From a virus, in the IMG/VR virus record IMGVR_UViG_3300045988_158059, positions 1 to 64,000 of that record: a stretch of DNA of 64,000 bases. The stretch is one strand, 5' to 3'. Every line of letters begins with the position of its first letter. Positions within the stretch are counted from its first letter, which is position 1. The notes beneath the pieces were generated by a model. It searched no databases, had not been told where the DNA came from, and saw only the letters and a program-made list of their open reading frames with translations. Position numbers and translations under genes: made by a program. Shown here one piece after another: positions 1 through 34,084 of this stretch.

Positions 1-1
1 C

Positions 2-361
2 TTATAATCCTCCTAAACAATTAATATATTGTTTAACATTGCCATTATCATATGTCTTTGTAATCAATACGGCAGACACTGTTTGTCCTATTCTTCCATG
101 ATATTTACGATATGTACTTTCATCACTAAGTGAATATTCCACTCCGTTATAGTCTACCGTAATTTCATACTCGGCATAATCTGTCCGAAATTGTGGAACA
201 TGATTAATTATACCTATGAAACGAGTTTCTTTCGGTTTATAGTATTCATTAACAATTTTGACTTTTACACTTTCTTCTTTCTTATCAATACATTTAGCGC
301 AACCAGTCAACATAAATGCACTGATAAGCAGAAGAATTAATATAGTAGTTACCTTTTTCAT
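2..361 (-). CDS. putative lipoprotein
   Basis: Hydrophobic N-terminal signal peptide ending in the lipobox-like LTGC. Stop codon at the window edge (2-4). Confidence 0.45.
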   Translation of the reverse strand: MKKVTTILILLLISAFMLTGCAKCIDKKEESVKVKIVNEYYKPKETRFIGIINHVPQFRTDYAEYEITVDYNGVEYSLSDESTYRKYHGRIGQTVSAVLITKTYDNGNVKQYINCLGGL

Positions 362-415
362 TTTGATTCCTCCTGCAGTTCCTTTCTTGCTTTCATAAGA
401 ATTTATATGTAACTC

Positions 416-700
416 CTACTGTCCTTTATGTCTTGACATATCGACTGTTGTTTTAAAATATTTACCAATTGTTGCAATTGTTGCACAAATAACAGGGATC
501 ATTGGTTTCGTAAATCTAGTTGTATTAAATATGATATTTAATCCATTAACCAATGCGTCCCCTACAAAAAATTTCAGTATACATCCACCTATGTAAGCAA
601 ACATAAATGATAATGCCGGACTAATAACAAGAGTGAAAATCGCAAGGATGATTACTGTAAACGCACCTATTCCTTCTAATGTATTATCTTTTCTGTTCAT
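416..700 (-). CDS. small integral membrane protein
   Basis: 94 aa with two or three hydrophobic helices. No recognisable motif. Confidence 0.4.
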   Translation of the reverse strand: MNRKDNTLEGIGAFTVIILAIFTLVISPALSFMFAYIGGCILKFFVGDALVNGLNIIFNTTRFTKPMIPVICATIATIGKYFKTTVDMSRHKGQ

Positions 701-1109
701 TTAATTCCTCCGAATCTTTTTCATATTCAACTACAATTACATGTAATCCATATCTTCTTGCAGTATCAATCATATTTTTTGTACCTCGCGATTCACCATC
801 CCAAAATGCGATCAACGTACCAGAGCCTGATTCTGATGCAAATTTTGCCATTTCATTATTACGTCTAGGGCCAGCAGACTTTCCATAAACTCCCCATAAC
901 GCTTGAAATCTTATAACGGAGTAACCATTATCAAACGCATAACATTCACCAAGCCTATCTGCACCTTTTGCACCACCACTGATAACTCTAATTTGCTGAG
1001 TGTTATTAACTTGATTCTCTTCGATATAATCTGACACAGTTTTCTTAAGCAAACGATAATCATCAAAATCTCGTGAACCGGCTATAATAATATTCATCGC
1101 CTCGCTCAT
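684..1109 (-). CDS. DUF2493 / SLOG-superfamily Rossmann-fold protein (DprA/LOG-like)
   Basis: IIAGSRDF...ISGGAKGADRLGE matches the GSRDW...HGGA.GAD signature of the phage-associated DUF2493 proteins. Overlaps the upstream ORF by 17 nt. Confidence 0.55.
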   Translation of the reverse strand: MSEAMNIIIAGSRDFDDYRLLKKTVSDYIEENQVNNTQQIRVISGGAKGADRLGECYAFDNGYSVIRFQALWGVYGKSAGPRRNNEMAKFASESGSGTLIAFWDGESRGTKNMIDTARRYGLHVIVVEYEKDSEELNEQKR

Positions 1110-1606
1110 TCATCCAGCCTCCATAATTCCACATCATAATCTTTAAGTTCCTCTTCAATGATTTTATAAACCATTTCCCAGTCTGCTCCCCCTCTTCCAC
1201 AACCAATCTTATACGGAAGTGCTACTGAAGTTCTACAAAGATCTTTTCCTTCTAGTCCATTTTTTTCACGCCATACTCCAAAATGTTGCGAAATATATCT
1301 TAAACCATATCTAAAAGCTTCAAGATCTGTATACTGTTTACCATCATATCCATATTTATTTTGTGCGAATAAAGACAATACAATTTGACCTCTATCTTTC
1401 AATAAATATGCATCACACGTTCCGAGTAGTTCTTCCGACTCGAACTTACAAAACTCACAAAACTTTCTATAGTGTTTATAAATGCCTTCATCATAATCTC
1501 TTAATGCTTTAGCGACTCCAGTGTTCATTTCTCCTTGGCAGTTAACCTGATGAATTATAAAATCTGTCTTTGCATTAACGATATTACCTTCAATAATTTT
1601 AATCAT
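1106..1606 (-). CDS. macro domain protein, TARG1/OARD1-like ADP-ribose (1''-phosphate) hydrolase
   Basis: IIHQVNCQGEMNTGVAKAL and LPYKIGCGRGGADWEMV parallel the CISEDCRMGAGIA and MPRIGCGLDRLQWENV blocks of TARG1/OARD1. The start is placed at the internal MIKIIEG (ATG 1604-1606), preceded by an AGGAAAAG ribosome-binding site; the longest-ORF start would overlap the upstream gene. Confidence 0.75.
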   Translation of the reverse strand: MIKIIEGNIVNAKTDFIIHQVNCQGEMNTGVAKALRDYDEGIYKHYRKFCEFCKFESEELLGTCDAYLLKDRGQIVLSLFAQNKYGYDGKQYTDLEAFRYGLRYISQHFGVWREKNGLEGKDLCRTSVALPYKIGCGRGGADWEMVYKIIEEELKDYDVELWRLDE

Positions 1607-1616
1607 AAATCTTTTC

Positions 1617-2024
1617 CTATAAATCCTGAAATGTAAACTTCTCGCCACAGGAGCAAATCACTTCTCCAATAGTTCCGATTGATGTTGGTGTAAAGCACCA
1701 TGTAAGAGAGCCGCCTATGCAACCATGTCCCATTGCTCTCTGTTCCATAGTTTTCAAACCATGTTTCTCAGCATCATGTTTTAATTCCCACTCTCTGATT
1801 TTCTCTTGTTCTTTTTCTGAAATTGGAAATCCTCTATACAGATCCTCTTTCGCTTTTTTCAGTTCTGCTTCCATTCTCTGCATTTCAGAATCTTTATAAT
1901 GCTCATCTTTGAGCTTCTTGTTTTCTTCTTCTAAGTATTTAATTCGTTTTTCATAAGTATCTGCTTTATCAACAATCCCCTGACAAAGATCTGAAACTGA
2001 ATCCGTAAAATATGTACTACTCAT
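1617..2024 (-). CDS. hypothetical coiled-coil protein with C-terminal Cys/His cluster
   Basis: K/E-rich heptad region, then GHGCIGG...CSCGEKF, possibly Zn-binding. Located between the macro and KptA genes. Confidence 0.4.
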   Translation of the reverse strand: MSSTYFTDSVSDLCQGIVDKADTYEKRIKYLEEENKKLKDEHYKDSEMQRMEAELKKAKEDLYRGFPISEKEQEKIREWELKHDAEKHGLKTMEQRAMGHGCIGGSLTWCFTPTSIGTIGEVICSCGEKFTFQDL

Positions 2025-2026
2025 TT

Positions 2027-2566
2027 TTATACCTCCTTCATTAAATATTTCACTGGAACCCTTTTAGTCAGCCAAACTCCATTTTTAGATAAGTAAAATT
2101 TGTATCCATCTTTGTACATCTGTTCACTATTGATAGAATAAACAACTTCTTTACCATGTCTCTTGCCGACAGCTTTGGCGGTTTCAACATCTTTTGACAA
2201 ATGAACATATAAACGACTTTTAGGAATCAGTCCATTCTGATCAATAGACGCTATATATTTCTCGCCAGTTCCATGATAAAGAATTTTAGGTGGCTCTTTC
2301 TCTTCCAGTTCTACATCTACCGGAATTGAATGTCCCTGATTCGCTCTGATCAATGTCTTGTCATCATTGAAAGAATATCGCTGCTTATTGTCAGTCCGTA
2401 CAATTTCCTCTAAAAATTCTTTGTTGAATCCGGGATTGTTTTTAGCGATACCCTGAATCAGTTCTTCTACATTCGCCCAACCATGTTCATCTATAGTAAT
2501 ACCAATAACTTCAGGCTTATGTCTTAATATAAGACTTATATATCTACTAATACTTTGTAAATTCAT
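2027..2566 (-). CDS. kptA: RNA 2'-phosphotransferase KptA/Tpt1 family (NAD-dependent)
   Basis: [14 protein letters not shown]...GL..D..GW; RANQGHS; LYHGT; YVHLS. These are the hallmark Tpt1/KptA motifs. AGAGGAG ribosome-binding site upstream. Confidence 0.8.
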
Positions 2567-2581
2567 TCTCTTTACTCCTCT

Positions 2582-3055
2582 TTACTCCATAAATGATGAA
2601 ACGTGTACAGTTACAAAATCACTATGTGCACGAATATAATCCAAAGTTTTTACTGTATCCTCTACAATTGCAATCTGAGACGGCTTAAGCCCAAGCTTTT
2701 GTTGCAGCGTCTGAAGCACAGTAAGTTTTTCTGTCTTTTCTAAAGTAAAATAGATATTATCATCCGGAAGGCCGTAATTATCTTTGATAAAAGCTCTTTT
2801 GCCGGGGATCTCACTGAAAGGACTCTTTGAACAAGCATATACTTTGTCAATACCTTTCTTTTGAATGAACTCTTGCATTAATTTAATCGGACGCACATCT
2901 TTATACGGATTCTCACTGGAAGCTACAAGTCTATCCCATTCATCATCAGTCATACTATGACTTAATTCAGAGAACTCATACGGAGCAAGTACTCCATCTA
3001 CATCCATTACTACAATCACATCATCTTTTAATAAATAATCTGTAATTTTACTCAT
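2582..3055 (-). CDS. HAD-superfamily phosphatase (Pnkp-phosphatase-like or nucleotidase-like)
   Basis: N-terminal VVMDVDGVLA carries the HAD motif I DxDG(T/V). Size (157 aa) is comparable to a stand-alone polynucleotide 3'-phosphatase domain. Confidence 0.5.
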   Translation of the reverse strand: MSKITDYLLKDDVIVVMDVDGVLAPYEFSELSHSMTDDEWDRLVASSENPYKDVRPIKLMQEFIQKKGIDKVYACSKSPFSEIPGKRAFIKDNYGLPDDNIYFTLEKTEKLTVLQTLQQKLGLKPSQIAIVEDTVKTLDYIRAHSDFVTVHVSSFME

Positions 3056-4523
3056 CTTTGTTTCCTCCGTTTAATCTTTCTCTAATGTCTTCAAATGTTT
3101 CTTTATTGCAAGCTTTCCCATCTACAAATACGGTACTTAACGCTCCGTCACGAAATACATCATTATACCCGTCTTCACACTGTAATTCTCCATTGTCATC
3201 GTAATATATACAACAACACCCTTTATGAGATTTTTTCAAATGACTCGTATCGGTTTTTGGATCTTTATAGATCATAATTGGCTCGCCATTGACAATTCCA
3301 TAGGTGGCTTTCATAGCAATACCAAACATATCTCTGGTTACAACAACCATATGTCCATCGGGTTCTATAACTGCTGAGAAGCAAAATGCTCCGACTCCGA
3401 ATACGATATTGTTTGCAGCAAATCCTTTTTTCTTCAGTTTTTCCCATACCTGCTTTACATTATTAAGAGTACATCCGTCCCCATAAATAATTCCAATGTG
3501 CGGATCAAGCACTTTATATCCCTTGCTATTTACTGTTCCGCCGAATGTATTCCAAAGCTTTTCAATTGTCTCTACAGCAATTTCTACCATATCTCCGGAA
3601 TCTGGACGAACCAGAAGTTTACCATTATGCTGCATGATTTCTTTTTTACAAGCCGGAAGAATATTATCAATCATATTCCAGTAATCATAAGTGTCAGATA
3701 CCATACTGAAAGATGCATTAGGATATAGTTCCGTAAGTAGTCTTTTTACAAATGTGATTTCATCACCGTCTACTGCATAATTTGAAGCCATAACTGAATG
3801 TTCTGTTGATACAGCACCAATTCCGATTCTTTTAGTCCAACAGCAAGCATCATAATACGTATCTATATAATCAATGGCCGGAATTGTACTTGTCTTATCA
3901 AATGATAATAACCAAGCAGATGAACATCTTACTGCCTCTTCCATACAAGACATTCCTCTCATACCAAAGTCTGAGCAGGCCATTTCAGGTCTTAAAAAGT
4001 CATCACAGGTCATTTTATAGTAGTCGTTTGCAAGTTCTCTATACATATGACCAATTGTTGCATGAGCACATGGTTTCCAGAGTTCAACCTGCAGGATACA
4101 TTCTATCCACTGTACTACCCAAGCAAAATCTGGATGTGTGTTTGTAATTTCGATGCATGGGATGCCCATTGGTACTAATGTTCCCTCCGGAATAGCACGT
4201 ATCTGAATTGGAAGATAACCTAATTTATGAAGTTTCATAATAGGCTCTAGGTCATAACTATTTCCTAACTGTATATCAATACTGTATTTATATGTATGCT
4301 CAACTTCTACTGCTGTTAATTCAAAAAAGTTTTTATTAAAATAATCAATCAGATATTCTTCAATAAATGCCTGTAGACCAAAGAATACCATTTTGTTCTG
4401 ATTCTTAAGCATTGATCGTCGTGGAGTCCAGTAGGAAACAAGTTTTGTTAATCCTTTTGGATAGATTTTATTATGAATTTGTTTATATGTATCTGAAAGT
4501 AAAATTGCTAAAGTATTATTCAT
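3048..4523 (-). CDS. nadV: nicotinamide phosphoribosyltransferase family (NadV/NAMPT-like or Namat-like)
   Basis: N-terminal LLSDTYKQIHNKIYPKGLTKLVSYWTPR parallels the NAMPT block [29 protein letters not shown]. 491 aa, typical for the family. Confidence 0.8.
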   Translation of the reverse strand: MNNTLAILLSDTYKQIHNKIYPKGLTKLVSYWTPRRSMLKNQNKMVFFGLQAFIEEYLIDYFNKNFFELTAVEVEHTYKYSIDIQLGNSYDLEPIMKLHKLGYLPIQIRAIPEGTLVPMGIPCIEITNTHPDFAWVVQWIECILQVELWKPCAHATIGHMYRELANDYYKMTCDDFLRPEMACSDFGMRGMSCMEEAVRCSSAWLLSFDKTSTIPAIDYIDTYYDACCWTKRIGIGAVSTEHSVMASNYAVDGDEITFVKRLLTELYPNASFSMVSDTYDYWNMIDNILPACKKEIMQHNGKLLVRPDSGDMVEIAVETIEKLWNTFGGTVNSKGYKVLDPHIGIIYGDGCTLNNVKQVWEKLKKKGFAANNIVFGVGAFCFSAVIEPDGHMVVVTRDMFGIAMKATYGIVNGEPIMIYKDPKTDTSHLKKSHKGCCCIYYDDNGELQCEDGYNDVFRDGALSTVFVDGKACNKETFEDIRERLNGGNKDE

Positions 4524-4532
4524 AACTCCTCC

Positions 4533-4874
4533 TTAATCATTCGCTTCTTTTACAAGCTCGTCCACATTGTCTTTCAAATATTGACTGACTTTAATATAAC
4601 CATCTGTATTATTCTTCTCTGCAAATCCTCTGAATTTTACTCTGGCAGGATAAGCATTTGAAACTGATCCGTCTTCTTCGATATCTACACAAATCGCCCA
4701 TCCGAATGTATGTAAAATCATATTAATCCACCAGAGAAATCCGTTATTCTTAAATTCTTCCCATGATTTCTTTTCTACCATTTGAATTTTCTTATACTTA
4801 TCACATGTACTATTCGGACTGCAATAACATCTATCATGTTTATGTACACACGTTTCGCAAATCTGTGCTTTCAT
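4533..4874 (-). CDS. hypothetical Cys-rich protein
   Basis: CETCVHKHDRCYCSPNSTCDKY cluster, possibly a Zn-binding module. No family recognised. Confidence 0.35.
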   Translation of the reverse strand: MKAQICETCVHKHDRCYCSPNSTCDKYKKIQMVEKKSWEEFKNNGFLWWINMILHTFGWAICVDIEEDGSVSNAYPARVKFRGFAEKNNTDGYIKVSQYLKDNVDELVKEAND

Positions 4875-4952
4875 ATACTATTTCTCCATTCCTCTTGCAT
4901 TCTTTCATATTTCACATTGATTCTCCGAAAAAAGATTGCTTTTTTGCATGTA

Positions 4953-5255
4953 TTATTCTTCAAATTCTTTCTGTGCCACAACTCTACAACCATAAAGTCC
5001 TAACAAATCATGTAAATCAAACTCTTCAATATCGTTCTCATCAGCAATCTTATCGCTATGCACAAGAATTTCATCATCCATCTCGGCAGCATGAATTGTC
5101 TGTCTAATAATACTTAACATAGTTTCAACTGCATACTCATAACCTTTAAGATTATCTTCATTCATATCACTCGTAATAGTGTCTTTCATTTTATTCATCT
5201 GTTCCTCTAAAAACTTTGGAACATTACAAACTGTAAACATCATTTCTTCATTCAT
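4953..5255 (-). CDS. hypothetical acidic protein
   Basis: ORF with codon usage consistent with its neighbours. No motif. Confidence 0.3.
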   Translation of the reverse strand: MNEEMMFTVCNVPKFLEEQMNKMKDTITSDMNEDNLKGYEYAVETMLSIIRQTIHAAEMDDEILVHSDKIADENDIEEFDLHDLLGLYGCRVVAQKEFEE

Positions 5256-5718
5256 CCTCTACTGGTTCATATTTTTTAAACAATCTACCCATTGTCAAAT
5301 GATTAAATTTACCCAAATCCATTGCACAAGCAACAACATTATGAGGTGTAGAAGCCCCAATAAATTCACATAAATATTCTGTTAATGATGAATATTCAAT
5401 ATCTGTTGATATTTCTTCATCCCCAGGTTTTCTAATCCATCCAATCATTTTCTTATGATTAATTGTTATTTCTCCTTTATCAAGTGAATATAATACACTA
5501 CCATTGCTACTTCTCCACCAAGCATCTTCACCTGCGAATTTAACAAATTCTTCTTCTGACATATCTGAGATCCTATTAAATGTTTCATCATACATTAACC
5601 AAACTTCATATCTATTACTCTTGTATGTGCATATCGCTCCACATTCTTTTTGGTAATCTAATAAATCTAATAATACAAAAAAGAATTGTTCAAGATTATT
5701 TCCTAAAATTTCTTTCAT
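5248..5718 (-). CDS. hypothetical protein
   Basis: 156 aa ORF in the operon. No motif. Confidence 0.35.
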   Translation of the reverse strand: MKEILGNNLEQFFFVLLDLLDYQKECGAICTYKSNRYEVWLMYDETFNRISDMSEEEFVKFAGEDAWWRSSNGSVLYSLDKGEITINHKKMIGWIRKPGDEEISTDIEYSSLTEYLCEFIGASTPHNVVACAMDLGKFNHLTMGRLFKKYEPVEDE

Positions 5719-5766
5719 TTTCTCACCACCCTAAAGGAATAATAATTTGTTTCATAATATTCCTCC

Positions 5767-6570
5767 TTATCTAAACCTCTCAACCAGTTCAATCTTAGGA
5801 CTTTCCAGATTTGTCAAGATCGTATCTGTCGTATAAATCTTCTCAATCAGTCCATTGTTTTTCAGAAGCTCTCCTTCATAAATAGTGTTTTCACAATGAG
5901 TTACATAAAGATAAATCTTACCTACACCGGCCTCTTTCAGCTTTTTAGCACTATAATAAAAAGTACCACCTTTGCTGCAGATATCATCTACAATCAGGAT
6001 GTCTTTACCTGGTAGCTGATCAATTTCACCTGATAAATCTAAGCCTTTAATCTCTCCGGTCTCCCAATCTCTATTCTTAATACCGAAAGCATATGGAAGA
6101 TGTACTGCTGAAGAATATCGCTTCATGGATCCCGCATCCGGATAAAACATCATAAGGTTATTACTCGCAATCTTCTTAACAGCATCCTCAATCATTCGAT
6201 TCGGGGATTCTACATGTACTTTATTAAATAATGCGGCAGATACATCAGAATGCGGATCTAAAACTTCTACTCTTCCAAAATGTAATGAATTAATAGTCTG
6301 AGCAAAATATTTTAAAGTAAATAATTCGTTCTCATGCTTGACTCGATCCATACGTGCATCTGGGATATAAGGCATATATAAATTAGGCACTACTCTATGA
6401 TCCCAACAATATCTAGTAATATATTCAACTGCTGTTAACTCTTCCATTGATTCAAAGAACCATTCAATATTATCTCTGCACCATCCTCCAATAGGAGGAA
6501 TATCCTTAAATAAGAATGTTCCATCCGGATATTTATCAAGTTTGATTTCTACGCCGTTTAATTTAATCAT
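5767..6570 (-). CDS. ribose-phosphate pyrophosphokinase-like (Prs/Adps family, type I PRTase fold)
   Basis: DILIVDDICSKGGT is the PRPP-binding loop. N-terminal domain as in Prs but shortened (267 aa). Confidence 0.7.
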   Translation of the reverse strand: MIKLNGVEIKLDKYPDGTFLFKDIPPIGGWCRDNIEWFFESMEELTAVEYITRYCWDHRVVPNLYMPYIPDARMDRVKHENELFTLKYFAQTINSLHFGRVEVLDPHSDVSAALFNKVHVESPNRMIEDAVKKIASNNLMMFYPDAGSMKRYSSAVHLPYAFGIKNRDWETGEIKGLDLSGEIDQLPGKDILIVDDICSKGGTFYYSAKKLKEAGVGKIYLYVTHCENTIYEGELLKNNGLIEKIYTTDTILTNLESPKIELVERFR

Positions 6571-7668
6571 TTAGTTCACCTCAAAATAAAAATATTTTAC
6601 TTCCCAATCGTCTTTAAATGTATCACGAACAGATAAAGCTATCTTTCCACATTCATTCATATGAGTCATAGCCAATGTCTTCCGACATGGGATTCCAGAG
6701 GTTTTTATGTCTGCTTGACATCTTTCATGTAATTCTTCCACATTTAACTTCCCATATCTTAAAGTATCCTGATGTGGATTTGGAACATTAGTTAAATCTT
6801 TTATGTCAGGATTAATTTCTTCCTTATTACATTCAGTTGGGAACGCACCGGCTCCATGCCGTGTCATATAGGTACGAGTCACATAACAGGCTTCTATATT
6901 GATTTCATCAGTCCAATTTACAGACTTTATAATTCTTGCAGGATTTTTAATACCAGTGTTGGATGGAGTAAGATGCGGATAATATTCAGTATTATTTTGA
7001 TCTAAAAGAAGCCCCTGCCCATTTTCAAATACTATGGTATCGTATCCATTAAGTAATTGATCATTACTTACAAAATGTACATGTGACATCATAAAATCAA
7101 GATCTTTATAGTAATGATCTCGAAGCCCAGGATTTTTTACGGGATGAAATAATTCTTCTTCCTGTTCAGATAATGTAATTCCCATATGTCTAAACATATC
7201 CATATAATATGACCATGACAATGAATATGAATTAATATGTTTTTTATAGCGTTGAATTGTATTATAAATCCCCATTCCACAGCTTCCGTGTTTATTGTTA
7301 CCACGACTTCGTTCAATAATTTGATTTGCCATCATATCAAAAGGATTTGTAATCATACATTTTTCATGAACATACACATGAGGTTCCCATCCTAATTTCT
7401 TTAACTCTTCCCATTCTTCCTTGAATACCAGAGGATTTAAAATAAAATCCTCCGGTAAATATGTATCTGCTCCATTTAATGTTCCAGAGCCGAAATGATG
7501 AAAGACATGCCGGGTTCCATCTGATTTTAATACTGTATGTCCTCTCTGAGCGCCGCCATTTGAACACACAACGATACAGTTATCTGCATTTTTAGTATAA
7601 TAATCTGTTAATTTACCCTTGCCCTCGTCACCAAAGTTTGCTCCGATGACAATTTTTATATCTTTCAT
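6571..7668 (-). CDS. adenylosuccinate synthetase family (PurA-like, possibly PurZ-like)
   Basis: GDEGKGK P-loop, GGAQRGHT (PurA GGHNAGHT), HGSCGMGI (PurA TTGRGIGP), FENGQGLLLD (PurA FEGAQGTLLD), GAGAFPTE. Only 365 aa; the C-terminal ~60 aa of bacterial PurA are absent. Confidence 0.8.
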   Translation of the reverse strand: MKDIKIVIGANFGDEGKGKLTDYYTKNADNCIVVCSNGGAQRGHTVLKSDGTRHVFHHFGSGTLNGADTYLPEDFILNPLVFKEEWEELKKLGWEPHVYVHEKCMITNPFDMMANQIIERSRGNNKHGSCGMGIYNTIQRYKKHINSYSLSWSYYMDMFRHMGITLSEQEEELFHPVKNPGLRDHYYKDLDFMMSHVHFVSNDQLLNGYDTIVFENGQGLLLDQNNTEYYPHLTPSNTGIKNPARIIKSVNWTDEINIEACYVTRTYMTRHGAGAFPTECNKEEINPDIKDLTNVPNPHQDTLRYGKLNVEELHERCQADIKTSGIPCRKTLAMTHMNECGKIALSVRDTFKDDWEVKYFYFEVN

Positions 7669-7680
7669 AAGTTATTCTCC

Positions 7681-8580
7681 TTACCAAACAATAGCTCCTG
7701 ATTCATCTGTCTCTGCAGAAATTACAGTGGATGAGACTACTACAGGTTCATTATTTTCTGCAGCCGCAACTACAATCTTTACAATTTCATCTGCAATATC
7801 ATCAAGACGATTAATGGTCCTAAAATGATTATCATCAAGATACTCTGAAAAAGACTCAACTATTCCTCTCTGGTCATATCCATCACGATGATTTACATTA
7901 ATGTGATAAATATCAAATTTCTCAGATGTTTCCATATATAAATCTTTAGTTTCTACATCGGCCTGAAGCGTATCGCCAGTTGTAATTCCTAATCCAGAGC
8001 GTCGTCCTGATACTGGTAAGTACGGATTAAGACGTTCGTCCCCAATTGTGATAATTACGCCTTTTTTACCCCTATTCCAACAATCAAGTTTTGTATGACG
8101 AGATCCAAAATACCAAGCAGCAGTATATGACTCGAAACAATTACCTCCGCCGCCAAATTCAAAATAGATTTTATCAAGCTGCTCCGCAATTCTAATATCG
8201 GATTCAAATTGTGATGCCTGAATTGGATAATTATCATATGCTAAATCACCAATACCCATAATCATAAATTCTACATCTTTAATCTGACCATATAATTTTG
8301 TCATGATTTCATTAAGTCTTTTTGCAATTTCTACTGCGGTCTGTCCCATAGATCCTGTGACATCCAAAGCTAAAATGACTGGTAAAGTATTCGGATGCTC
8401 TTCATTATCACAACATTCTCTAATAACACCTTTAGGATCGAGTGCTGCATCAATATTTTTTGCTTTAAACATTTCCTGATTAGAATAACTTCCTGTAACT
8501 ACTCCTCGTGAATCAGTGCCATATCCTTTTGATGTTGAATAACTTACAAAACTTCTAGTATCCCAACTTCCGCTTCCCAT
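7681..8580 (-). CDS. von Willebrand factor A (vWA) domain protein
   Basis: ALDVTGSM is the MIDAS DxSGS motif. Confidence 0.65.
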   Translation of the reverse strand: MGSGSWDTRSFVSYSTSKGYGTDSRGVVTGSYSNQEMFKAKNIDAALDPKGVIRECCDNEEHPNTLPVILALDVTGSMGQTAVEIAKRLNEIMTKLYGQIKDVEFMIMGIGDLAYDNYPIQASQFESDIRIAEQLDKIYFEFGGGGNCFESYTAAWYFGSRHTKLDCWNRGKKGVIITIGDERLNPYLPVSGRRSGLGITTGDTLQADVETKDLYMETSEKFDIYHINVNHRDGYDQRGIVESFSEYLDDNHFRTINRLDDIADEIVKIVVAAAENNEPVVVSSTVISAETDESGAIVW

Positions 8581-8582
8581 AA

Positions 8583-9215
8583 TTATTCATCCTCCTCTAA
8601 ATCATCTTCACTATCTTCTGTGTCTGTATCATCCATGCTAAAATCAAACATACCGTCAAATACATCCCCCATACCACCATTCATCATCATAAATGGCATC
8701 ATAGCGTTCATTGGATTACTGTCTGTTCCAGTTCCGGTACCGGCCGCTCCATTCATCATCTGAGACATCATCATGTATTTAAAGATTTTATTTGCACTAT
8801 TCTTATCTTTTCCAAGATTACTTCCGAACATAGATACAATTTTCCCATAGAAATAAGTATTGCCCATAAATACATGGCGCTCCGGCAGAATTGTTTCAAC
8901 TGTAGAATCTTCATAATTGATTACAGTGATCTTTGTTTTATCTGCTTCGATGACGCACTTAGGTTTGCCATTTACAAGGATGATGTCTCCTTTAGCCACC
9001 TTATTTGTTGGAATGACGAAGAAAAAGTTTTCATCTACTCCAGGAAATACAAAATTACCGCAGTTTGTGAGCTTTCCGGATTTAACATTGTAACTCTTAT
9101 ATCCATTGGAAGTTTTTACTGCAATATTACCGCTCATGGATAACTTACACATTCCACTACCAATTTTCCCAAACATTCCATTCATAAAATTATTCATCAT
9201 TTTAATTCCCTCCAT
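8583..9215 (-). CDS. hypothetical Met/Gly-rich protein with acidic tail
   Basis: Met-rich termini and a DDTDTEDSEDDLEEDE C-terminus. No family recognised. Confidence 0.4.
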   Translation of the reverse strand: MEGIKMMNNFMNGMFGKIGSGMCKLSMSGNIAVKTSNGYKSYNVKSGKLTNCGNFVFPGVDENFFFVIPTNKVAKGDIILVNGKPKCVIEADKTKITVINYEDSTVETILPERHVFMGNTYFYGKIVSMFGSNLGKDKNSANKIFKYMMMSQMMNGAAGTGTGTDSNPMNAMMPFMMMNGGMGDVFDGMFDFSMDDTDTEDSEDDLEEDE

Positions 9216-9223
9216 TGTTTAAT

Positions 9224-9778
9224 TTAATTTCTATTGATTACATTAATCTGGCAGCTTTCCATTACATCAAGAGCCGCTTTATGCTTTTCCGGTGTTGATC
9301 CTGCGCAGCATGATGCATCCACTGTGATTTTTGCCTCTGGATAATAAGTTTTAATCAAAAGAGCGTTCGTAATAACACAAATGTCTGTGCATACTCCAAT
9401 AATTTCAATATCTAATAAAGAAGAATCATATGCGATACCAAATGTTTCTTCCCAATCCCAGTCATCAAATCCAAAAGTAGATTTACAACATACCATAAAA
9501 CTATCGAGATTTTTATAATCAAGTTCATCAACAATTTCCCAACCTTTAGTACCATACATACAATGTTCAGGAAGTTTTCTGCCCTCTGAAGTATCTGCGT
9601 AATCTGAATGATGAGTATCCTTTGTAAGAATTACATAGTTCTTATTATTCTTATATTCATCAAATTTCTTTTTCACATTTGGTACAATAGCTTGTGCTTC
9701 CGGTGTTCCAAGAACTCCTGTCACAAAATCATTCTGCACATCAATTACAATCAGAACTTTCTTCTTCTCTTTTTCCAT
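9224..9778 (-). CDS. isochorismatase-family hydrolase (nicotinamidase PncA-like)
   Basis: VLIVIDVQNDF and IIGVCTDICV (catalytic Cys) are the isochorismatase/PncA signatures. Start placed at MEKEKKK (ATG 9776-9778), preceded by a GGGAG ribosome-binding site. Confidence 0.7.
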   Translation of the reverse strand: MEKEKKKVLIVIDVQNDFVTGVLGTPEAQAIVPNVKKKFDEYKNNKNYVILTKDTHHSDYADTSEGRKLPEHCMYGTKGWEIVDELDYKNLDSFMVCCKSTFGFDDWDWEETFGIAYDSSLLDIEIIGVCTDICVITNALLIKTYYPEAKITVDASCCAGSTPEKHKAALDVMESCQINVINRN

Positions 9779-10100
9779 TTTTATTCTCCCATTCTTTAAT
9801 TTGCTGTGCTCCATCTTCAACTTGCTGCTTATCATGTCTTGAATAATTATCTGCTGGACCATAAGCACCTTTATGTCGATATGAAGCATGTCCTTTACGA
9901 GTATTAGTTTTTACTGCAGTACCACCTCGACCAAGCAAACCATTATGACCTTTTGCTAATATACCAGATTTAAATTCAGGTTCATCAATCCATTCTCCAA
10001 GATATCTTCCGGAATATTTTTGGCCCTTAATTAATCTGCGTCTCTTTTTAATACTTTTTAACCTTTGTTCTCTCAAATATCCTCTTTTACGTTCCGGCAT
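9741..10100 (-). CDS. hypothetical basic protein
   Basis: Arg/Lys-rich 119 aa. GGAGG ribosome-binding site 7 nt upstream of the ATG. Confidence 0.4.
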   Translation of the reverse strand: MPERKRGYLREQRLKSIKKRRRLIKGQKYSGRYLGEWIDEPEFKSGILAKGHNGLLGRGGTAVKTNTRKGHASYRHKGAYGPADNYSRHDKQQVEDGAQQIKEWENKNGKREEESSDCN

Positions 10101-10102
10101 TA

Positions 10103-10402
10103 CTATTCCTCCAGTCTATACAAAATAATTGGTCCACCTTCAATATAGAACGTCGCATTGTAATCTATAAATTCTCTAGCCTCATCTTCTGTCATATCCT
10201 CATGGTTAACTAAAGATTCAATCATTTTTTCGTAATCATATATTGCTCTATCATCAGAAGAAATACCAAGAAATGCATCTTCATAAGATGGATTTGTAAA
10301 AAATATCGTCCCCTCGTATCCGGCCTCTAATAACAACCGTTCTGTTTTTGATGCTTGATCTTCATATATATTATCTGATGTAAGTTCTGACATATCTACC
10401 AT
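10103..10402 (-). CDS. hypothetical acidic protein
   Basis: 99 aa ORF translationally coupled to its neighbours. Confidence 0.35.
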   Translation of the reverse strand: MVDMSELTSDNIYEDQASKTERLLLEAGYEGTIFFTNPSYEDAFLGISSDDRAIYDYEKMIESLVNHEDMTEDEAREFIDYNATFYIEGGPIILYRLEE

Positions 10403-11145
10403 TATGCGATCCTCACAATCTGTTCATATATAACTATATCTTTTATTGTTATTGCTTTATTGTCGTGGTAATGCCCACACAACCAACGCTTATAATCAAC
10501 ATTGCGCCTTATTTCTTCCAGATAATTTGTTAACTTATCCGGCTTATATAGTCCATGTGATAATAATGCTGCTGTAGAAGAAGCTGTACAATGTGTTAAG
10601 ATAAAATCTACCTTATTATTATGTTCTGCCAGATTCTTTATACCCTCATCCATCTCTTCTTGATTTGGCATTTCTCGTTCCCACCATGAAATATGATTGA
10701 TTCGGTACATTTTATCTGGATCATCTCTCCATTCCTTTACTCTTGGATCGTCAATCTCTAATACTCCATCTGAAATATCATGACTGGCAGCCCCTCCAAA
10801 GGTAAAGAATTTTAATCCGTCTATATCAAATACCTGTCCTCTCATAAGATGAATTATCGATGGTTTAATAAAATGCACCTTACCACCATGCCATTCTTCT
10901 ACCGGATAAGAATCTAATATATCGTAATTCTCATGATTTCCGTCAATAAAGAGTGTTGTGAAATGCTTCTCTTCAAGCCAATTCAGATACCACCTTTGCT
11001 GCGGTGAATCTCTCCATATCCCAAAATCTCCAAGAATTATCACATAATCGTCCTTCGACATCTCACGCTGTTCGGGGAAAGAATCCATATTAACTCTATG
11101 GATCCAATCCCCATGCGTATCTCCGGTTACCCAGATTATTGGCAT
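10402..11145 (-). CDS. calcineurin-like metallophosphoesterase
   Basis: VTGDTHGD, ILGDFG and IDGNHEN are metallophosphatase motifs I-III. The track start is TTG; the ATG at MPIIW is preferred here. Confidence 0.75.
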   Translation of the reverse strand: MPIIWVTGDTHGDWIHRVNMDSFPEQREMSKDDYVIILGDFGIWRDSPQQRWYLNWLEEKHFTTLFIDGNHENYDILDSYPVEEWHGGKVHFIKPSIIHLMRGQVFDIDGLKFFTFGGAASHDISDGVLEIDDPRVKEWRDDPDKMYRINHISWWEREMPNQEEMDEGIKNLAEHNNKVDFILTHCTASSTAALLSHGLYKPDKLTNYLEEIRRNVDYKRWLCGHYHDNKAITIKDIVIYEQIVRIA

Positions 11146-11294
11146 AACCCCCAAATGAAGTAGTTAACGCTTAACATAAGTAATGATATTGCAGAAGGCC
11201 AATAACCATCCGGAACAACATTATTCATAACAACGCTCATGCATATCACACTGATAATGAAAAACACAATATTTTTTAATATCGTTTTAATCAT
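11136..11294 (-). CDS. small hydrophobic protein (micro-ORF, 52 aa)
   Basis: Hand-translated MIKTILKNIVFFIISVICMS... Its ATG overlaps the upstream stop (TAATG), with GGAG upstream. Absent from the track because it is under 60 aa. Confidence 0.35.
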   Translation of the reverse strand: MIKTILKNIVFFIISVICMSVVMNNVVPDGYWPSAISLLMLSVNYFIWGLCQ

Positions 11295-11770
11295 TATTTC
11301 GTTAACTCCTTATACTGATCAAGCAAGGCCGCCAGTTCTGGATTCTCAGTCGCATACATTTCATATTTCTTTGTTACATCCATCTGTTTGATAACGGCAT
11401 CCATATCTTTTTTAAGCTTCTCAGCTTTCTTTCTATTTTCAACACGCTGGTCATATGCAGATGTATCAACTCTACAGATAATTTCAGCAGTAATATTTTT
11501 ATTATATTTTACTTCTGCTTCCGGTACTGTTAAAATTTCTTTAATTGTCAGAACATCTTTGTTACAACCACTTACTAAAACCTGGTCTCCGGCTTTATAT
11601 GTATTGCCATCGTCAAAGACTGCATAATAATAGTCTTTCTTACAACAACAAGTTACTTCTTCAATTACTGCTACTGCATAATATCCTGTTAATTTTGCCA
11701 TTTGTCCATTCTCCTCTTCTAATTTAATTATATTTAACAAATAACCTTCATACGTTTTAAACTTAACCAT
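11294..11770 (-). CDS. hypothetical protein
   Basis: 158 aa ORF. No motif. Confidence 0.4.
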   Translation of the reverse strand: MVKFKTYEGYLLNIIKLEEENGQMAKLTGYYAVAVIEEVTCCCKKDYYYAVFDDGNTYKAGDQVLVSGCNKDVLTIKEILTVPEAEVKYNKNITAEIICRVDTSAYDQRVENRKKAEKLKKDMDAVIKQMDVTKKYEMYATENPELAALLDQYKELTK

Positions 11771-11776
11771 ATCTGC

Positions 11777-11950
11777 TTACTTCCCAAATACTGATTTAAG
11801 TAATAAGAATACAAGCCAAATTCCTGTAGCAATCAACCAGCTGAAAGCGACCCCGAAACATAATGTGATCAATTTTATAATTACACATGTTACGATCCAA
11901 CTTAAAGCTAATGCCAATAATGACACAATAATAAGTAAAATTCCCGTCAT
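11777..11950 (-). CDS. small membrane protein (57 aa) coupled to the SPFH gene
   Basis: Hand-translated MTGILLIIVSLLALALSWIV...: two TM helices. ATG 1 nt after the SPFH stop (GGAGAATAAtATG). Confidence 0.45.
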   Translation of the reverse strand: MTGILLIIVSLLALALSWIVTCVIIKLITLCFGVAFSWLIATGIWLVFLLLKSVFGK

Positions 11951-11951
11951 A

Positions 11952-12914
11952 TTATTCTCCTTTTACAGTTGCCGTTCCTGATGTTAAGTCTCCTGCGTCA
12001 ACAATTGTTGCTGCATTTCCACCTTGCACCTTCGGCACATCACCATTCCATTTATCAATTTTCTGTTTCTCAATAAGCTCTGGAGTAAGAGACTCAGCAA
12101 TTTTCTTATTTGCTTCTGCTTCAGCATCCGCTTTAATTCTTGTTGCTTCCGCTTTACCTTCAGCAGTGATCTTCGCCTGTTCAGCCTCAATAGCGGCCTT
12201 TTCTTTATCCTGTTCTGCTGCAATAAGAGCAACTTCTTTATCTTTATCTGCCTGTACCTTTGCAGTCTTAGCTTCAATATTTGCAAGTTCCAGTTCCTGC
12301 TGTGCATTTACTTTCTTCTGAATAGCTGCCTGAGTTTCATCATCGGTTGAAATCGAAGTAAAGTTTACAGTATCAATGATAATTCCATATGGCTCAAATT
12401 TCTTTTTTAAGTATTTGTCAAGTGCTTCATTCAGTTCCTGGCGTTTATCACCAAATACATCTGTTACCGGATACTTAGCAGTTACTTCCTGTGTCCACGC
12501 TTTCATCTTTGGTTTAATGAAAGTATTTTTTACACTTTCACCGGACTGACCTTTAAATCTTGTAAATACATCAGCAACTTGATCCTGATCGAACTTATAA
12601 GAGAATTCCAAATCAACAAGAAGCTGTTTTCCATCAGCAGTAGGTGTTTTAAAACTCTCATCTTTTGGTGAATCACCTTTATCTTCTGAAGTCAGATAAG
12701 ACTGTTCAATACCAATTGAATACAGTGATGTTTTTACTGTAGGTGAAATCAAATGCCATCCCTGTGGAAGAGTATCATTTGAAATTCCGCCGTTCATCTT
12801 GTATTCTACAGCTACATAACCAGCAGGAACTCTTACCGTACACTTTGCTACACAAATTAATCCTGCTACAATTATTACTGCTAATCCAACCCCACCTAAA
12901 AATCCTTTTCTCAT
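11952..12914 (-). CDS. SPFH/band-7 (stomatin/prohibitin/HflKC-like) membrane protein
   Basis: N-terminal TM anchor, SPFH-like core, then a long A/E/K-rich coiled coil. Confidence 0.6.
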   Translation of the reverse strand: MRKGFLGGVGLAVIIVAGLICVAKCTVRVPAGYVAVEYKMNGGISNDTLPQGWHLISPTVKTSLYSIGIEQSYLTSEDKGDSPKDESFKTPTADGKQLLVDLEFSYKFDQDQVADVFTRFKGQSGESVKNTFIKPKMKAWTQEVTAKYPVTDVFGDKRQELNEALDKYLKKKFEPYGIIIDTVNFTSISTDDETQAAIQKKVNAQQELELANIEAKTAKVQADKDKEVALIAAEQDKEKAAIEAEQAKITAEGKAEATRIKADAEAEANKKIAESLTPELIEKQKIDKWNGDVPKVQGGNAATIVDAGDLTSGTATVKGE

Positions 12915-13081
12915 TACTCATTCTCCTTATCTTTTTCTTTATTTTCTTCTCTATTTATTTCATCTGCTGCATCTTTCCAGATCCTATGTAAGAATCTACC
13001 AAATGGATAAAACAATGCAGATAATAGAAACCATAAAATTACTGCTCCAACTAATACTAAAAATATAAATACCGGATTCAT
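12914..13081 (-). CDS. small membrane protein (55 aa), NfeD-like partner of the SPFH gene
   Basis: Hand-translated MNPVFIFLVLVGAVILWFLLSALFYPFGRFL... AAGGAGAA ribosome-binding site. Its stop overlaps the SPFH ATG (TAATG). Confidence 0.45.
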   Translation of the reverse strand: MNPVFIFLVLVGAVILWFLLSALFYPFGRFLHRIWKDAADEINREENKEKDKENE

Positions 13082-13095
13082 ATAATTCTCCTTAC

Positions 13096-13125
13096 TACGG
13101 TATGCGTGTTCTTACGCATACCGTA
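13096..13125. other. perfect 12-bp hairpin (tacggtatgcgt / acgcataccgta, 6-nt loop)
   Basis: Seen directly in the sequence, between the coiled-coil gene stop and the micro-ORF. Possible RNA processing or stability element, or attenuator. Confidence 0.35.
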
Positions 13126-13136
13126 TAATTAAATTA

Positions 13137-14117
13137 TCATTTATTATTCTGCTGAGTCTGACCGTTCAGAATTTTAACTCCACCGGTAGATTCTACAGTC
13201 TTAGCAGCAAGTTCTCTCATCTGAGCATATGCATCGTCAAGTTTCTGCTGTAATTCAACTTTTTCTGCTCTCGCATTAGCCAGATCCTCTGCAAGTCTTT
13301 CATTTTTATCTTCCAGAAGCTGTTTCTGATATTCAGCATCTTTCTTAAGTGCTCTGACCTCAAACGCATTTGATTTATCAGCATCGGCTTTACCTTTTTT
13401 AATACCTTCCTCTGTTGCTGCTGCAATCAATGTCGGAATCTCTTCTACTTTTGCTTCTAATTCCTTTACATGATCAGATTTTGCATTCAGTTCTGTTTCT
13501 TTCTCAAGAGCCGCTGTTTCTCTAAGTTCCAAAATCTTTTCTCTAGCAGCTTTCTCATCTTCCCACTTATCATTTTCAGCTTTACGACTACGTTTCAGAT
13601 TATAGGTATATTCATCTTCCTCACGGCTACGAGTTAATTTAATTTCATTTTCTCTTGCTTTAGCTTCTGCATTGATAGAATCAATAATTTCCTGTTTCTG
13701 CTGCTTCAGTGCCTCAATTTCAGCTTTCAGTGTATCTTTTTTCTCACCCAATTCAGCTTCAATCTCTGCTTCTTTCGCTGCCTGAGTCTCTTTTAACTCT
13801 TCATTTTTCTCTTTATAAGCATTGATCATAGCTGCCATAGCATTTGCTTTTGTCTCAATGCCATATAATTCATCTAACTCAAGCTGTTTAATTTCAATAG
13901 CTTCTGTAAGATCATTGTATTTCTTGATAATCTCTGGATTAAAGATATCCTCTTTTGCTGTTGCATCTGCAGATTCGATAACTTCTACCTTTTTAGCCTT
14001 CGCTGCTTCTTTTGCAGGATCATCAATCATTCGGTCTCTTGTATCAAGTTTCTCCACTGCTGCCTTATACGCTTCCATAATTTCTGCCTTTGTTGATTTC
14101 ATTGTAATTTCTGCCAT
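13137..14117 (-). CDS. hypothetical K/E/A-rich coiled-coil protein
   Basis: 326 aa, almost entirely heptad-like charged repeats. Confidence 0.45.
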   Translation of the reverse strand: MAEITMKSTKAEIMEAYKAAVEKLDTRDRMIDDPAKEAAKAKKVEVIESADATAKEDIFNPEIIKKYNDLTEAIEIKQLELDELYGIETKANAMAAMINAYKEKNEELKETQAAKEAEIEAELGEKKDTLKAEIEALKQQKQEIIDSINAEAKARENEIKLTRSREEDEYTYNLKRSRKAENDKWEDEKAAREKILELRETAALEKETELNAKSDHVKELEAKVEEIPTLIAAATEEGIKKGKADADKSNAFEVRALKKDAEYQKQLLEDKNERLAEDLANARAEKVELQQKLDDAYAQMRELAAKTVESTGGVKILNGQTQQNNK

Positions 14118-14142
14118 GTTTTTAGTTCTCCTTTTTCTCCGT

Positions 14143-14155
14143 ATTTTGTTTAATT
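14143..14155 (-). promoter_or_regulatory. conserved intergenic motif, GTTTAATTAAATT class (representative instance)
   Basis: One of about 25 near-identical AT-rich palindromic motifs, each 15-25 nt upstream of a minus-strand start codon. See the findings for the full list. Confidence 0.5.
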
Positions 14156-14185
14156 AAATTTTTATATCAAAGCTTTAATAGCTTA

Positions 14186-14713
14186 TCAATCATTATTAAT
14201 GCCATCTTTATACAGAACGATCTTTTTCTCTTCGAGTGATCTCTGCACATCAATTACTCTTTGATTAGTTGATCCAGCCCAATGATAATTTACATCTGCC
14301 AAATCTTTCTGAAACATACCGTCTACAATTACATTTGTATTTAACAAAATATCTGTTAAAATAGGAAATGCTTCTTCTATAATTTCATTCCAAGTGTATC
14401 CAGTATAAATCCAAATAGATTTAGAATTACCATATCTTGATTTAATTTTACTTATTAAATTACAAACTTCAACTCTGTTGTTTTCATTTAACGGATCTCC
14501 TCCAGAAAAAGTAATTCCAGAAATATAATCATTATCAAGCTGTTCAAAAATCTCTTCTATTGCTGTATTATCAAATGGAATTCCAGATTTGGTGTCCCAT
14601 GTTTCCGGGTTTTGACAGCCATTGCAATAATGATCACAACCGGAAACAAAAAGCGTGACTCTTAATCCTGGTCCATTGTTCATGTCATCATGTTTAATAT
14701 CGTGATAATTCAT
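14186..14713 (-). CDS. nrdG: anaerobic ribonucleotide reductase activating protein (radical SAM)
   Basis: VSGCDHYCNGCQNPETW carries the CxxxCxxC radical-SAM cluster. Immediately downstream of nrdD. Confidence 0.85.
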   Translation of the reverse strand: MNYHDIKHDDMNNGPGLRVTLFVSGCDHYCNGCQNPETWDTKSGIPFDNTAIEEIFEQLDNDYISGITFSGGDPLNENNRVEVCNLISKIKSRYGNSKSIWIYTGYTWNEIIEEAFPILTDILLNTNVIVDGMFQKDLADVNYHWAGSTNQRVIDVQRSLEEKKIVLYKDGINND

Positions 14714-17471: not shown

Positions 17472-17682
17472 TCCTTTCCGGTATATATAAGATGTGATGA
17501 TTTTCATCATTACACATAATCTTAAAAAGTCTTGTGCTTACATTGCCATCTGAATCAAGAAATCTTTTGCAAGTATCTTTCTTGCAGCACTCATTACCAT
17601 CTTTCTGGCAAAAATAATAACTATCTTTTTCATTATCGCATCCAACTACAATATTAGTTCCGTTTGCAAAATATACATTCAT
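17452..17682 (-). CDS. hypothetical small Cys-rich protein
   Basis: 76 aa; CQKDGNECCKKDTC. Confidence 0.3.
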   Translation of the reverse strand: MNVYFANGTNIVVGCDNEKDSYYFCQKDGNECCKKDTCKRFLDSDGNVSTRLFKIMCNDENHHILYIPERNETNNA

Positions 17683-33501: not shown

Positions 33502-33578
33502 GTTTACTGCCTCCTTAAATATACATTTCAGTAGTTACTATTTTCTTCTGTAATGATCCGCGCGACATCATTACAAAT

Positions 33579-33648: not shown

Positions 33649-33717
33649 TCTTTTTTTTACATGCATGACCTGTCGTACTGCAGTCACAACAGGATTATGT
33701 GTACTTATTCTTTCTCC

Positions 33718-34044: not shown

Positions 34045-34084
34045 TCTGTCACCTCTCGAATCTCACATTCCATCGAATCACTTA

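Follow-up and report, generated by a model that had tools for sequence, protein, structure and literature searches.

The DNA analysed here, called the window, comprises the 64,000 nucleotides at positions 1 to 64,000 of the IMG/VR virus record IMGVR_UViG_3300045988_158059. Close to its position 1 lies an island of genes for NAD+ metabolism, in a region where, according to the list of open reading frames (ORFs) of the window, every gene is on the minus strand. A preliminary description had pointed out a NAMPT-family gene and a short Prs-like gene within 1.3 kb of each other, and the pair was found exactly so, at 3048-4523 and 5767-6570, with three small ORFs in the 1,243-bp gap between the two genes. 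Adps, an ADP-ribose (ADPR) pyrophosphokinase, and the transferase Namat together form NAD+ reconstitution pathway 1 (NARP1), known from phages SPbetaL1, Bas63, FADO and ICP1 (Osterman et al., bioRxiv 10.1101/2024.02.11.579819; PMC12774641; PMC13586617). The genes of the island on which this analysis turns are as follows.

9224-9778, minus strand: PncA-like nicotinamidase, 184 aa in the gene call of the source contigs (Pfam Isochorismatase, 9.7e-23)
5767-6570, minus strand: Adps-like ADP-ribose pyrophosphokinase, 267 aa, containing DILIVDDICSKGGT (Adps profile and motifs)
3048-4523, minus strand: Namat-like transferase of the non-acidic type, 491 aa (SPbetaL1 Namat 9W5X/9W5W, E 4e-118)
1106-1606, minus strand: Poa1p-like macro-domain phosphatase, 166 aa (phrog_335 "phosphatase", 3.7e-37)

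The DNA adjoining window position 1 could be read from contigs L003 and L004, which are 100% identical to window positions 1-14523. A gene for NadE (NAD synthetase) begins 1 bp beyond position 1 (L003:14524-15285), and a gene for a NadM-type nicotinamide mononucleotide (NMN) adenylyltransferase (NMNAT) of 182 aa follows 1,025 bp past it (L003:15548-16096), both on the same strand as the island. Because genes for a dUTPase, an excisionase and an integrase, and then bacterial genes, continue past NadM on these contigs, the element is a prophage. Relatives were located in Ruminococcus, Lachnospiraceae and Acutalibacteraceae genomes, and exact copies of the 491-aa Namat-like protein occur on at least 22 public contigs. 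A megablast of window positions 1-12000 against the INPHARED phages gave no match, hence no close cultured phage relative. A second recombinase region (49843-53102, minus strand), encoding an MrpR-like core-binding-domain protein, a DndB-like protein (2.3e-7) and a tyrosine integrase, lies inside the element, in addition to the integrase that was found at its end beyond the window.

The preliminary description had also seen no NMNAT in the window and had taken its absence to favour an Adps/Namat pathway. The observation is correct: phmmer with NadM and NadE queries found no homologue at E<=10 when run on every stop-to-stop ORF of the window with 50 aa or more (372 in all), and the motif GxFxPxHxGH is absent from these window ORFs. 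The argument built on it fails, since NadM and NadE both lie just outside on the same strand, and the absence is an effect of the window boundary.

The 267-aa Prs-like protein stays below the gathering scores of its Pfam families (Pribosyl_synth, 26.2 bits; Pribosyltran, 24 bits) and under the 113-bit cut-off of the NCBIfam Prs model TIGR01251 (89.9 bits). It is 41.5% identical (E 2e-45) to SPbetaL1 Adps, the product of the gene immediately upstream of SPbetaL1 namat. Adps membership was judged by a home-built profile, made from 75 Adps proteins of classical NARP1 loci, together with the residues described in PMC13586617. On this profile the protein scored 253 bits, against 121-135 bits for the Prs of E. 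coli, Legionella and Burkholderia. A Prs profile gave it 46.5 bits, and gave 60.5, 38.5 and 36.3 bits to the reference phage Adps of ICP1, FADO and SPbetaL1 (range 24-60). The ICP1 reference was that of ICP1_2011_A, used in place of isolate 2019_Mat_D, in which adps and namat are truncated or frameshifted (L079:5046-7467; ORFs of 232 and 439 aa); both genes look intact in ICP1_2011_A.

When aligned to the ICP1 Adps residues (PMC13586617), the Prs-like protein carries the Adps motifs ARMDR (RF loop), DPHS, PDAGSxK, KNRDWETGEI and DDIC (as DDICSKGGT), of which KNRDWETGEI is the catalytic hairpin and includes the equivalent of Lys185. The canonical Prs motifs ARQDRR, DLHA, SPDxGG, DKRRP and DDMIDTGGT are not carried. 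A PDB search returned canonical Prs only, at 1e-13 or weaker, from a set of structures that included no Adps. Profile scores and motifs clearly place the protein in the Adps subfamily, apart from housekeeping Prs.

The Namat-like protein matches Pfam NAPRTase (5.3e-30) and NAMPT_N (2e-9). Its best PDB relatives are 9W5X and 9W5W (E 4e-118), which are SPbetaL1 Namat (PMC12774641), with 9KE8/9KEO as second-best matches and human NAMPT at 2e-59. The identity to SPbetaL1 Namat is 42% by tblastn; it is 42-52% to Adps-linked Namat-family proteins as against 28.8% to the NARP2-type Nampt of the KVP40-like phage VH7D. A tree likewise groups the window transferase with the Adps-linked Namat-family sequences, a grouping that is weak by itself as the tree is rooted on a single NARP2-type Nampt. 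The family placement that the preliminary description had proposed as a check, judged by PDB match, Adps profile, motifs and tree, hence puts the two proteins with Adps and Namat and not with Prs and NadV.

The difference from classical Namat lies in the pyridine pocket. Asp215 of SPbetaL1 Namat hydrogen-bonds nicotinamide, and the mutation D215A is reported to lower NAD+ formation 8.1-fold (PMC12774641). The equivalent human residue, Asp219, is described as determining NAMPT's substrate specificity, and D219S is listed there as switching substrate affinity (PMC7096376, PMC4919578). The window protein has Ser212 in place of Asp215, Lys210 in place of Gly213 and Ser239 in place of Ala242, and the nicotinamide-binding Asp required of NARP1 is thus lacking. 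The human D219S switch is reportedly towards nicotinic acid. The remaining active-site residues D13, Y15, F189, R192, H245, R306, D308, R399 and D400 (SPbetaL1 numbering) are unchanged in the window transferase, whose catalytic His is H242.

To place these substitutions, 232 full-length homologues from loci in IMG/VR and INPHARED were gathered, and they split into two groups: 84 of 84 sequences, the NARP2-type Nampt of VH7D included, carry the classical signature G213 / D or E215 / A242, and 148 of 148 carry a gut-phage signature of N, K or R213 / A or S215 / S242, with Ala at 215 in 93 of them. Residues D13, Y15, F189, R192, H245, R306, D308, G360, D361, R399 and D400 are invariant in both. 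Among the best 150 representatives of 50%-identity clusters in a library of 1.84 billion proteins, 51 are non-acidic at the Asp215 position and about 45 of these also have Ser242. On these counts the non-acidic type is a large subfamily and no local oddity.

Gene linkage follows the signature. Counted at loci where the transferase gene has 5 kb or more to either side, and with partners sought within 10 kb, PncA, NadE and Adps occurred together in 130 of 130 non-acidic-type loci. Neither PncA nor NadE was present at any of the 60 acidic-type loci, 59 of which had Adps, and profile hidden Markov models likewise found no NadE or PncA in 86 classical loci totalling 1.49 Mb. The linkage is common to three sub-lineages that are 33-52% identical, namely the window clade (KTST), the MT835544 clade (NTAT) and the Phass-1 clade (RTAT), although gene order differs among them; the window protein is 52% identical to the MT835544 clade and 33% to the Phass-1 clade. 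Five further divergent cluster representatives have compact PncA-Adps-transferase-NadE operons or fragments of them. Of these, one compact operon of PncA, Prs-like, Namat-like (VSS signature) and NadE genes (L271:6570-10492, on the 73-kb contig JGI 3300042643) lies in an apparent bacterial chromosome, with an NrtR-type NUDIX regulator 6 kb away; on the Adps profile the Prs-like protein of this operon gets no more than 130 bits, as true Prs also would.

Human-gut phages and prophages of Clostridia carry the module in abundance, with more than 150 IMG/VR contigs sampled. NadE itself is rare in phages (44 of 50,697 records), and the five best matches are all human-gut phages. The two of these five with a Namat-family gene on the contig are MT835544 and Phass-1, and both are non-acidic. 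Three short gut-phage contigs carry NadE without Namat; NadE is not exclusive to the module.

These observations bear on two readings in which nicotinamide remains the substrate. According to the first, the pair is a classical NARP1 that joins ADPR-pyrophosphate (ADPR-PP) and nicotinamide to NAD+, as the preliminary description had concluded, and PncA, NadE and NadM are an independent salvage set nearby. Both proteins do fall within the Adps and Namat clades, the catalytic residues are conserved except at the three pocket positions, and Ser212 could still hydrogen-bond the amide. Against this stand the absence of the nicotinamide-binding Asp in 148 of 148 sequences, 93 of them with the alanine that costs SPbetaL1 Namat 8-fold activity, and a nicotinamidase in the same operon that would destroy the proposed co-substrate. 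A PncA/NadE linkage of 130/130 versus 0/60, across sub-lineages 33% identical and in rearranged order, is also hard to credit to coincidence. With Asp215 changed to Ser212 and the subfamily invariably linked to nicotinamidase and NAD synthetase, we regard direct rebuilding of NAD+ from nicotinamide as quite unlikely.

The second is a NARP2-like pathway of NadV, Prs and NMNAT, in which phosphoribosyl pyrophosphate (PRPP), boosted by the phage Prs, would react with nicotinamide to NMN, which NadM would convert to NAD+. It gains from the NadM-type NMNAT 1 kb outside the window, which has HKGH and SGTxxR motifs and only NMNATs among its PDB matches. The preliminary description would have given up NARP1 for an NMNAT elsewhere in the genome that clusters with NadV/NatV systems, and the existence of NadM bears this out in part. 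On the other side, the transferase is only 28.8% identical to the VH7D Nampt, and in the tree it groups with the Adps-linked sequences relative to that single Nampt root. The nicotinamide-binding Asp is moreover kept by NARP2-type and human Nampt and lost in the window transferase, NadM is not conserved across the subfamily, and the conserved PncA and NadE would be left unexplained. We consider this pathway very improbable. A plain NadV plus Prs reading and a plain classical NARP1 reading were thus both rejected.

We propose instead that the module is a deamidated NARP1, which would rebuild NAD+ from nicotinate by way of nicotinic acid adenine dinucleotide (NaAD), and we give this reading a probability of about 0.52. 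Nicotinate and NaAD are put forward as intermediates because the amide-binding Asp is lost and PncA and NadE are linked to the transferase. A host NADase would split NAD+ into ADPR and nicotinamide. The PncA-like nicotinamidase (9224-9778) would then convert nicotinamide to nicotinate in step 1, and the Adps-like kinase (5767-6570) would make ADPR-PP from ADPR and ATP in step 2. In step 3 the Namat-like transferase (3048-4523) would join nicotinate and ADPR-PP to NaAD, which NadE, encoded beyond window position 1, would amidate to NAD+ in step 4. The Poa1p-like macro phosphatase probably feeds ADPR-1''-phosphate in as ADPR, and in the window clade NadM probably adds a parallel branch from a PRPP-derived mononucleotide. 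Between them the four conserved genes would lead from the two NADase products back to NAD+ without help from any host enzyme. Beside the family membership, the signature and the linkage, which are read directly from the sequences, the substrates of steps 3 and 4 and an anti-defence role are what we infer. The proposal is one of comparative genomics and is well supported at that level.

The best PDB match of PncA is the pyrazinamidase/nicotinamidase 1ilw of P. horikoshii (3.5e-13); aligned with it, PncA retains the catalytic Asp and Cys (GVCTDICV) as well as the D-x-H...H metal site. NadE scores 179 bits on the NCBIfam nadE model, for which the cut-off is 63.65. The NadM-type protein has the cytidylyltransferase fold with the motifs GRFQTFHKGH and ISGTMLR; 13 of its 13 PDB matches are NMN adenylyltransferases, and NMNAT families top its NCBIfam matches, which also include weak ones to pantetheine-phosphate adenylyltransferase. 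MT835544-type and Phass-1-type loci lack NadM, as do most of the more divergent window-type relatives, and all of these retain Adps, PncA and NadE.

The Poa1p-like macro phosphatase is often embedded in the non-acidic-type module. Its gene lies four genes downstream of the Namat-like gene in the window and next to that gene in MT835544-type relatives. Homologues found by tblastn are annotated as Poa1p-like macrodomain or phosphatase, and the match in Vibrio phage K408 overlaps a gene annotated as a ribose-phosphate pyrophosphokinase (Adps-type). In the system NARP1-AP, the Poa1p-like macro family converts ADPR-1''-phosphate to ADPR (bioRxiv 10.64898/2026.01.28.702374), and by analogy the window protein is a candidate for the enzyme Adpp with the same reaction.

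Whether ADPR-PP is still the second substrate of the transferase depends on its adenine clamp. In the window protein the clamp residue R40 is Met38, and the clamp helix reads GAFCFS, a 10-aa insertion at about 384-393 that displaces Y396, and VVTRD; of the motif GSXfXfXfTRD it keeps the aromatics 3 and 5 and has lost 7. Among 49 non-acidic-type enzymes, however, 46 keep R40 and an aromatic residue at 392. In 11 the clamp helix is compact and has no insertion, as in classical Namat, and most of these closely match GSXfXfXfTRD. Because most non-acidic-type enzymes retain R40 and the aromatic residue at 392, ADPR-PP is probably still a substrate; clamp retention is at least consistent with its continued use. 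The window clade is the most derived of the non-acidic clades.

Several observations weigh against deamidated NARP1. The degraded clamp of the window clade, with R40 lost and Y396 displaced, is one, and it coincides with the fact that this is the main clade with an extra NadM, that is, an NMNAT beside the degraded clamp. The best PDB relatives of NadE tie at about 111 bits between F. tularensis 3FIU and P. horikoshii 2E18; 3FIU amidates nicotinic acid mononucleotide (NaMN) rather than NaAD, and the PDB relatives leave either compound as the NadE substrate. The specificity switch is argued by analogy with human NAMPT D219S and SPbetaL1 D215A, and a serine that could still hydrogen-bond the amide means that the enzyme may accept both substrates. 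Two loci depart from the pattern: in an Acutalibacteraceae metagenome-assembled genome (L263:627-4700, JAZQHA010000225.1), NadM lies directly upstream of a non-acidic Namat-like gene, followed by macro and NadE, and the 10-kb contig has no Adps, an arrangement that fits a route from PRPP through NaMN; a further relative (L266) has no PncA within 10 kb. Finally, neighbour joining makes the window and MT835544 clades sisters (100/100 bootstrap) and the Phass-1 clade a separate deep branch, with monophyly of all non-acidic sequences at 38/100. The covariation of signature and linkage, though perfect, is phylogenetically non-independent and perhaps reflects two deep events. It thus represents few independent events, yet ones kept over deep divergence.

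Several of these points converge on a route of the Preiss-Handler type, in which the Prs-like enzyme would make PRPP, the NAMPT-like enzyme would make NaMN from nicotinate and PRPP, and ADPR would be no substrate. To finish, NadM could convert NaMN to NaAD for NadE, or NadE could yield NMN for NadM to turn into NAD+, as in Francisella. The neighbouring NadE and NadM, the Francisella NMN synthetase 3FIU among the best relatives of NadE, the loss of R40 and Y396 in the window clade and the NadM gene in place of Adps at L263 all suit this route. In addition, SPbetaL1 Namat keeps activity with PRPP (PMC12774641), and the non-acidic pocket signature suits nicotinate use equally well in either case. 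On the other side, MT835544-type loci, Phass-1-type loci and the majority of the more divergent window-type ones have NadE without NadM, and the middle step would there depend on the host. The Prs-like protein is of Adps type (253 against about 130 bits) with a remodelled hairpin and PP loop, the adenine clamp is kept in most non-acidic-type enzymes, and a Poa1p-like ADPR-1''-phosphate phosphatase is frequently part of the module. We judge the NaMN route unlikely overall, and a serious rival for the window clade in particular. It may also run in parallel with the ADPR-PP route.

The other genes of the island, all outside the four steps of the proposed deamidated NARP1, are listed below.

6571-7668, minus strand: adenylosuccinate-synthetase-like protein, 365 aa (Pfam Adenylsucc_synt, 1.4e-38; phrog_1211, 1.6e-89)
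5248-5718, minus strand: small ORF, 156 aa (phrog_4643, unknown function, 7.3e-46)
4953-5255, minus strand: small ORF, 100 aa (no PHROGs family match; Pfam matches sub-threshold only)
4533-4874, minus strand: small ORF, 113 aa (phrog_16397, unknown function, 3.1e-46)
2582-3055, minus strand: HAD-like hydrolase, 157 aa (weak NCBIfam HAD-IA match, 2e-6, 28.1 bits versus a 29.4-bit cut-off)
2027-2566, minus strand: Tpt1/KptA RNA 2'-phosphotransferase, 179 aa (Pfam PTS_2-RNA, 3e-48)
684-1109, minus strand: SLOG-family (YAcAr) protein, 141 aa, accessory (Pfam YAcAr, 2e-13)

The small ORFs between adps and the Namat-like gene (4533-5718) differ in number and identity among close relatives, with a spacing of about 1.2 to 2 kb. 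The HAD-like gene shares the last 8 bp of the Namat-like gene and is kept directly downstream of it in the window clade. The SLOG (YAcAr) gene is present in some relatives and not in others; in an otherwise near-identical prophage variant (L006:14259-14687) it is swapped for a 182-aa ORF and a NADAR-domain gene. The island exchanges ADP-ribose-related accessory genes.

The adenylosuccinate-synthetase-like gene lies directly upstream of the Adps-like gene. It occurs in the window clade and a few relatives and is missing from MT835544-type loci, with one exception, and from all Phass-1-type loci; it is an accessory gene outside the conserved core. Its product is far under the NCBIfam cut-offs for PurA (108.9 bits) and PurZ (48.5 bits). 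The family phrog_1211 is named after PurZ, yet the PDB matches listed are named adenylosuccinate synthetase. Genes for an HD-domain protein (18523-19296), a guanylate-kinase-like protein (16887-17510) and a weakly ThyX-like protein (17679-18431) lie 10 kb away from it. The phage may perhaps carry modified purines, 2-aminoadenine being one example.

The prophage also encodes consumers of NAD+. Enzymes of the Tpt1/KptA family consume NAD+ and release nicotinamide and ADP-ribose 1'',2''-cyclic phosphate. Once ring-opened, this product could return to ADPR via the macro phosphatase. Together with Tpt1/KptA, an RNA ligase at 32074-32994 (minus strand) suggests an RNA-repair set. A NAD-dependent DNA ligase of the LigA type, with adenylation, OB and BRCT domains (47409-49409, minus strand), lies among phage replication genes for Pol III alpha, RecD-like and DnaB-like helicases and NrdD. 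The phage encodes its own NAD-dependent DNA ligase, and there is therefore a direct replication requirement for NAD+.

The preliminary description had further named a macro and an ADP-ribosylglycohydrolase (ARH) gene as neighbours that supply ADPR. The macro gene (1106-1606) is indeed in the island, whereas the ARH gene is real but 30 kb away; it was identified at 34279-35058 (minus strand, 2.1e-28), among four tRNA genes, Lys-ttt, Met-cat, Leu-caa and Gln-ttg (33578-37189). Taken as a whole, that earlier interpretation is partly supported. An ABC importer-like set (37965-39311, 42126-42737 and 42730-43476, minus strand) consists of an NMT1/THI5-like substrate-binding domain fused to an OmpA-like domain, an ATPase and a permease; vitamin or pyridine uptake by this putative set would fit the NAD theme.

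Depletion of NAD+ is a widespread anti-phage strategy of bacteria, used by Thoeris, DSR, SIR2-HerA, SEFIR and aRES, and NARP1 is the main known answer of phages to it. If deamidated NARP1 is real, the Namat scaffold has evolved a second pyridine specificity and carries out an enzymatic reaction that is new, from nicotinate + ADPR-PP to NaAD. The presence of a nicotinamidase and a NAD synthetase in gut phages would then be accounted for, and the 213/215/242 signature would tell the two types apart in metagenomes. The signature also suggests specificity-swap tests on the already crystallised SPbetaL1 Namat. With present annotation and anti-defence finders, the genes would pass for ordinary NARP1 or for "Prs + NAMPT", and the difference would be missed. 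Full-text literature searches, and term searches of four NARP papers (the NARP1 preprint, the Namat structure paper, the aRES/NARP1-AP preprint and the NARP3 paper), turned up no description of a nicotinate or NaAD variant of NARP1. The odds are about even that PncA, Adps, a nicotinate ADP-ribose transferase and NadE make up a fourth kind of phage NAD+ reconstitution, one that would reach NaAD in one step from ADPR-PP, bypassing NaMN and NadD.

Compared with NARP1, the window has the same combination on one strand, an ADPR pyrophosphokinase derived from Prs and a transferase derived from Nampt, lying within four genes where up to 10 are allowed. By this definition the two genes can be classed as a NARP1-type pair in the sense of Osterman et al. 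It differs in the pocket, with Ser, Lys and Ser for Asp215, Gly213 and Ala242, in the clamp, with Met for R40 and a 10-residue insertion at the Y396 position, and in its obligatory linkage to PncA and NadE, seen at 0 of 86 classical loci. The predicted product is NaAD and not NAD+. With NARP1-AP (Adps-Adpp-Namat of Vibrio phage Gary; bioRxiv 10.64898/2026.01.28.702374) the island shares the phrog_335 Poa1p-like macro homologue. Unlike in that system, the macro gene is four genes from the Namat-like gene, outside the two-gene criterion of that study, and PncA and NadE are not part of NARP1-AP.

As in NARP2 (Nampt plus a NadM/Nudix Nmnat, Vibrio phage KVP40), a NadM-type NMNAT is encoded near a Nampt-family gene in the same genome. 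The window NMNAT is in contrast a stand-alone protein of 182 aa without a Nudix domain, the transferase is of the Namat family, and Adps is present. The NARP1 preprint reports that its authors found NARP1 and NARP2 together in no phage (bioRxiv 10.1101/2024.02.11.579819). Unlike the phages of Osterman et al., the window prophage combines a NARP1-type pair with an Nmnat.

The proposed order of events, in which nicotinamide is deamidated first and the amide is restored last by an NH3-dependent NadE-family enzyme, resembles the Preiss-Handler pathway (PncA, PncB, NadD, NadE) and the NadE*/NadM route of Francisella. The middle steps would differ, with Adps and a Nampt-family transferase acting on ADPR-PP, and NadM is found instead of NadD. 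A nicotinate phosphoribosyltransferase of the PncB family and NadD did not turn up among the scanned ORFs, in scans that were not aimed at either. The closest parallel in the pocket is the D219S mutant of human NAMPT (Khan et al. 2006, as cited in PMC4919578 and PMC7096376), which likewise has Ser at the amide-bonding Asp position. That mutant is an engineered, PRPP-using enzyme, whereas the change in the window transferase is natural, is accompanied by two further pocket substitutions and would act on a scaffold of the ADPR-PP type.

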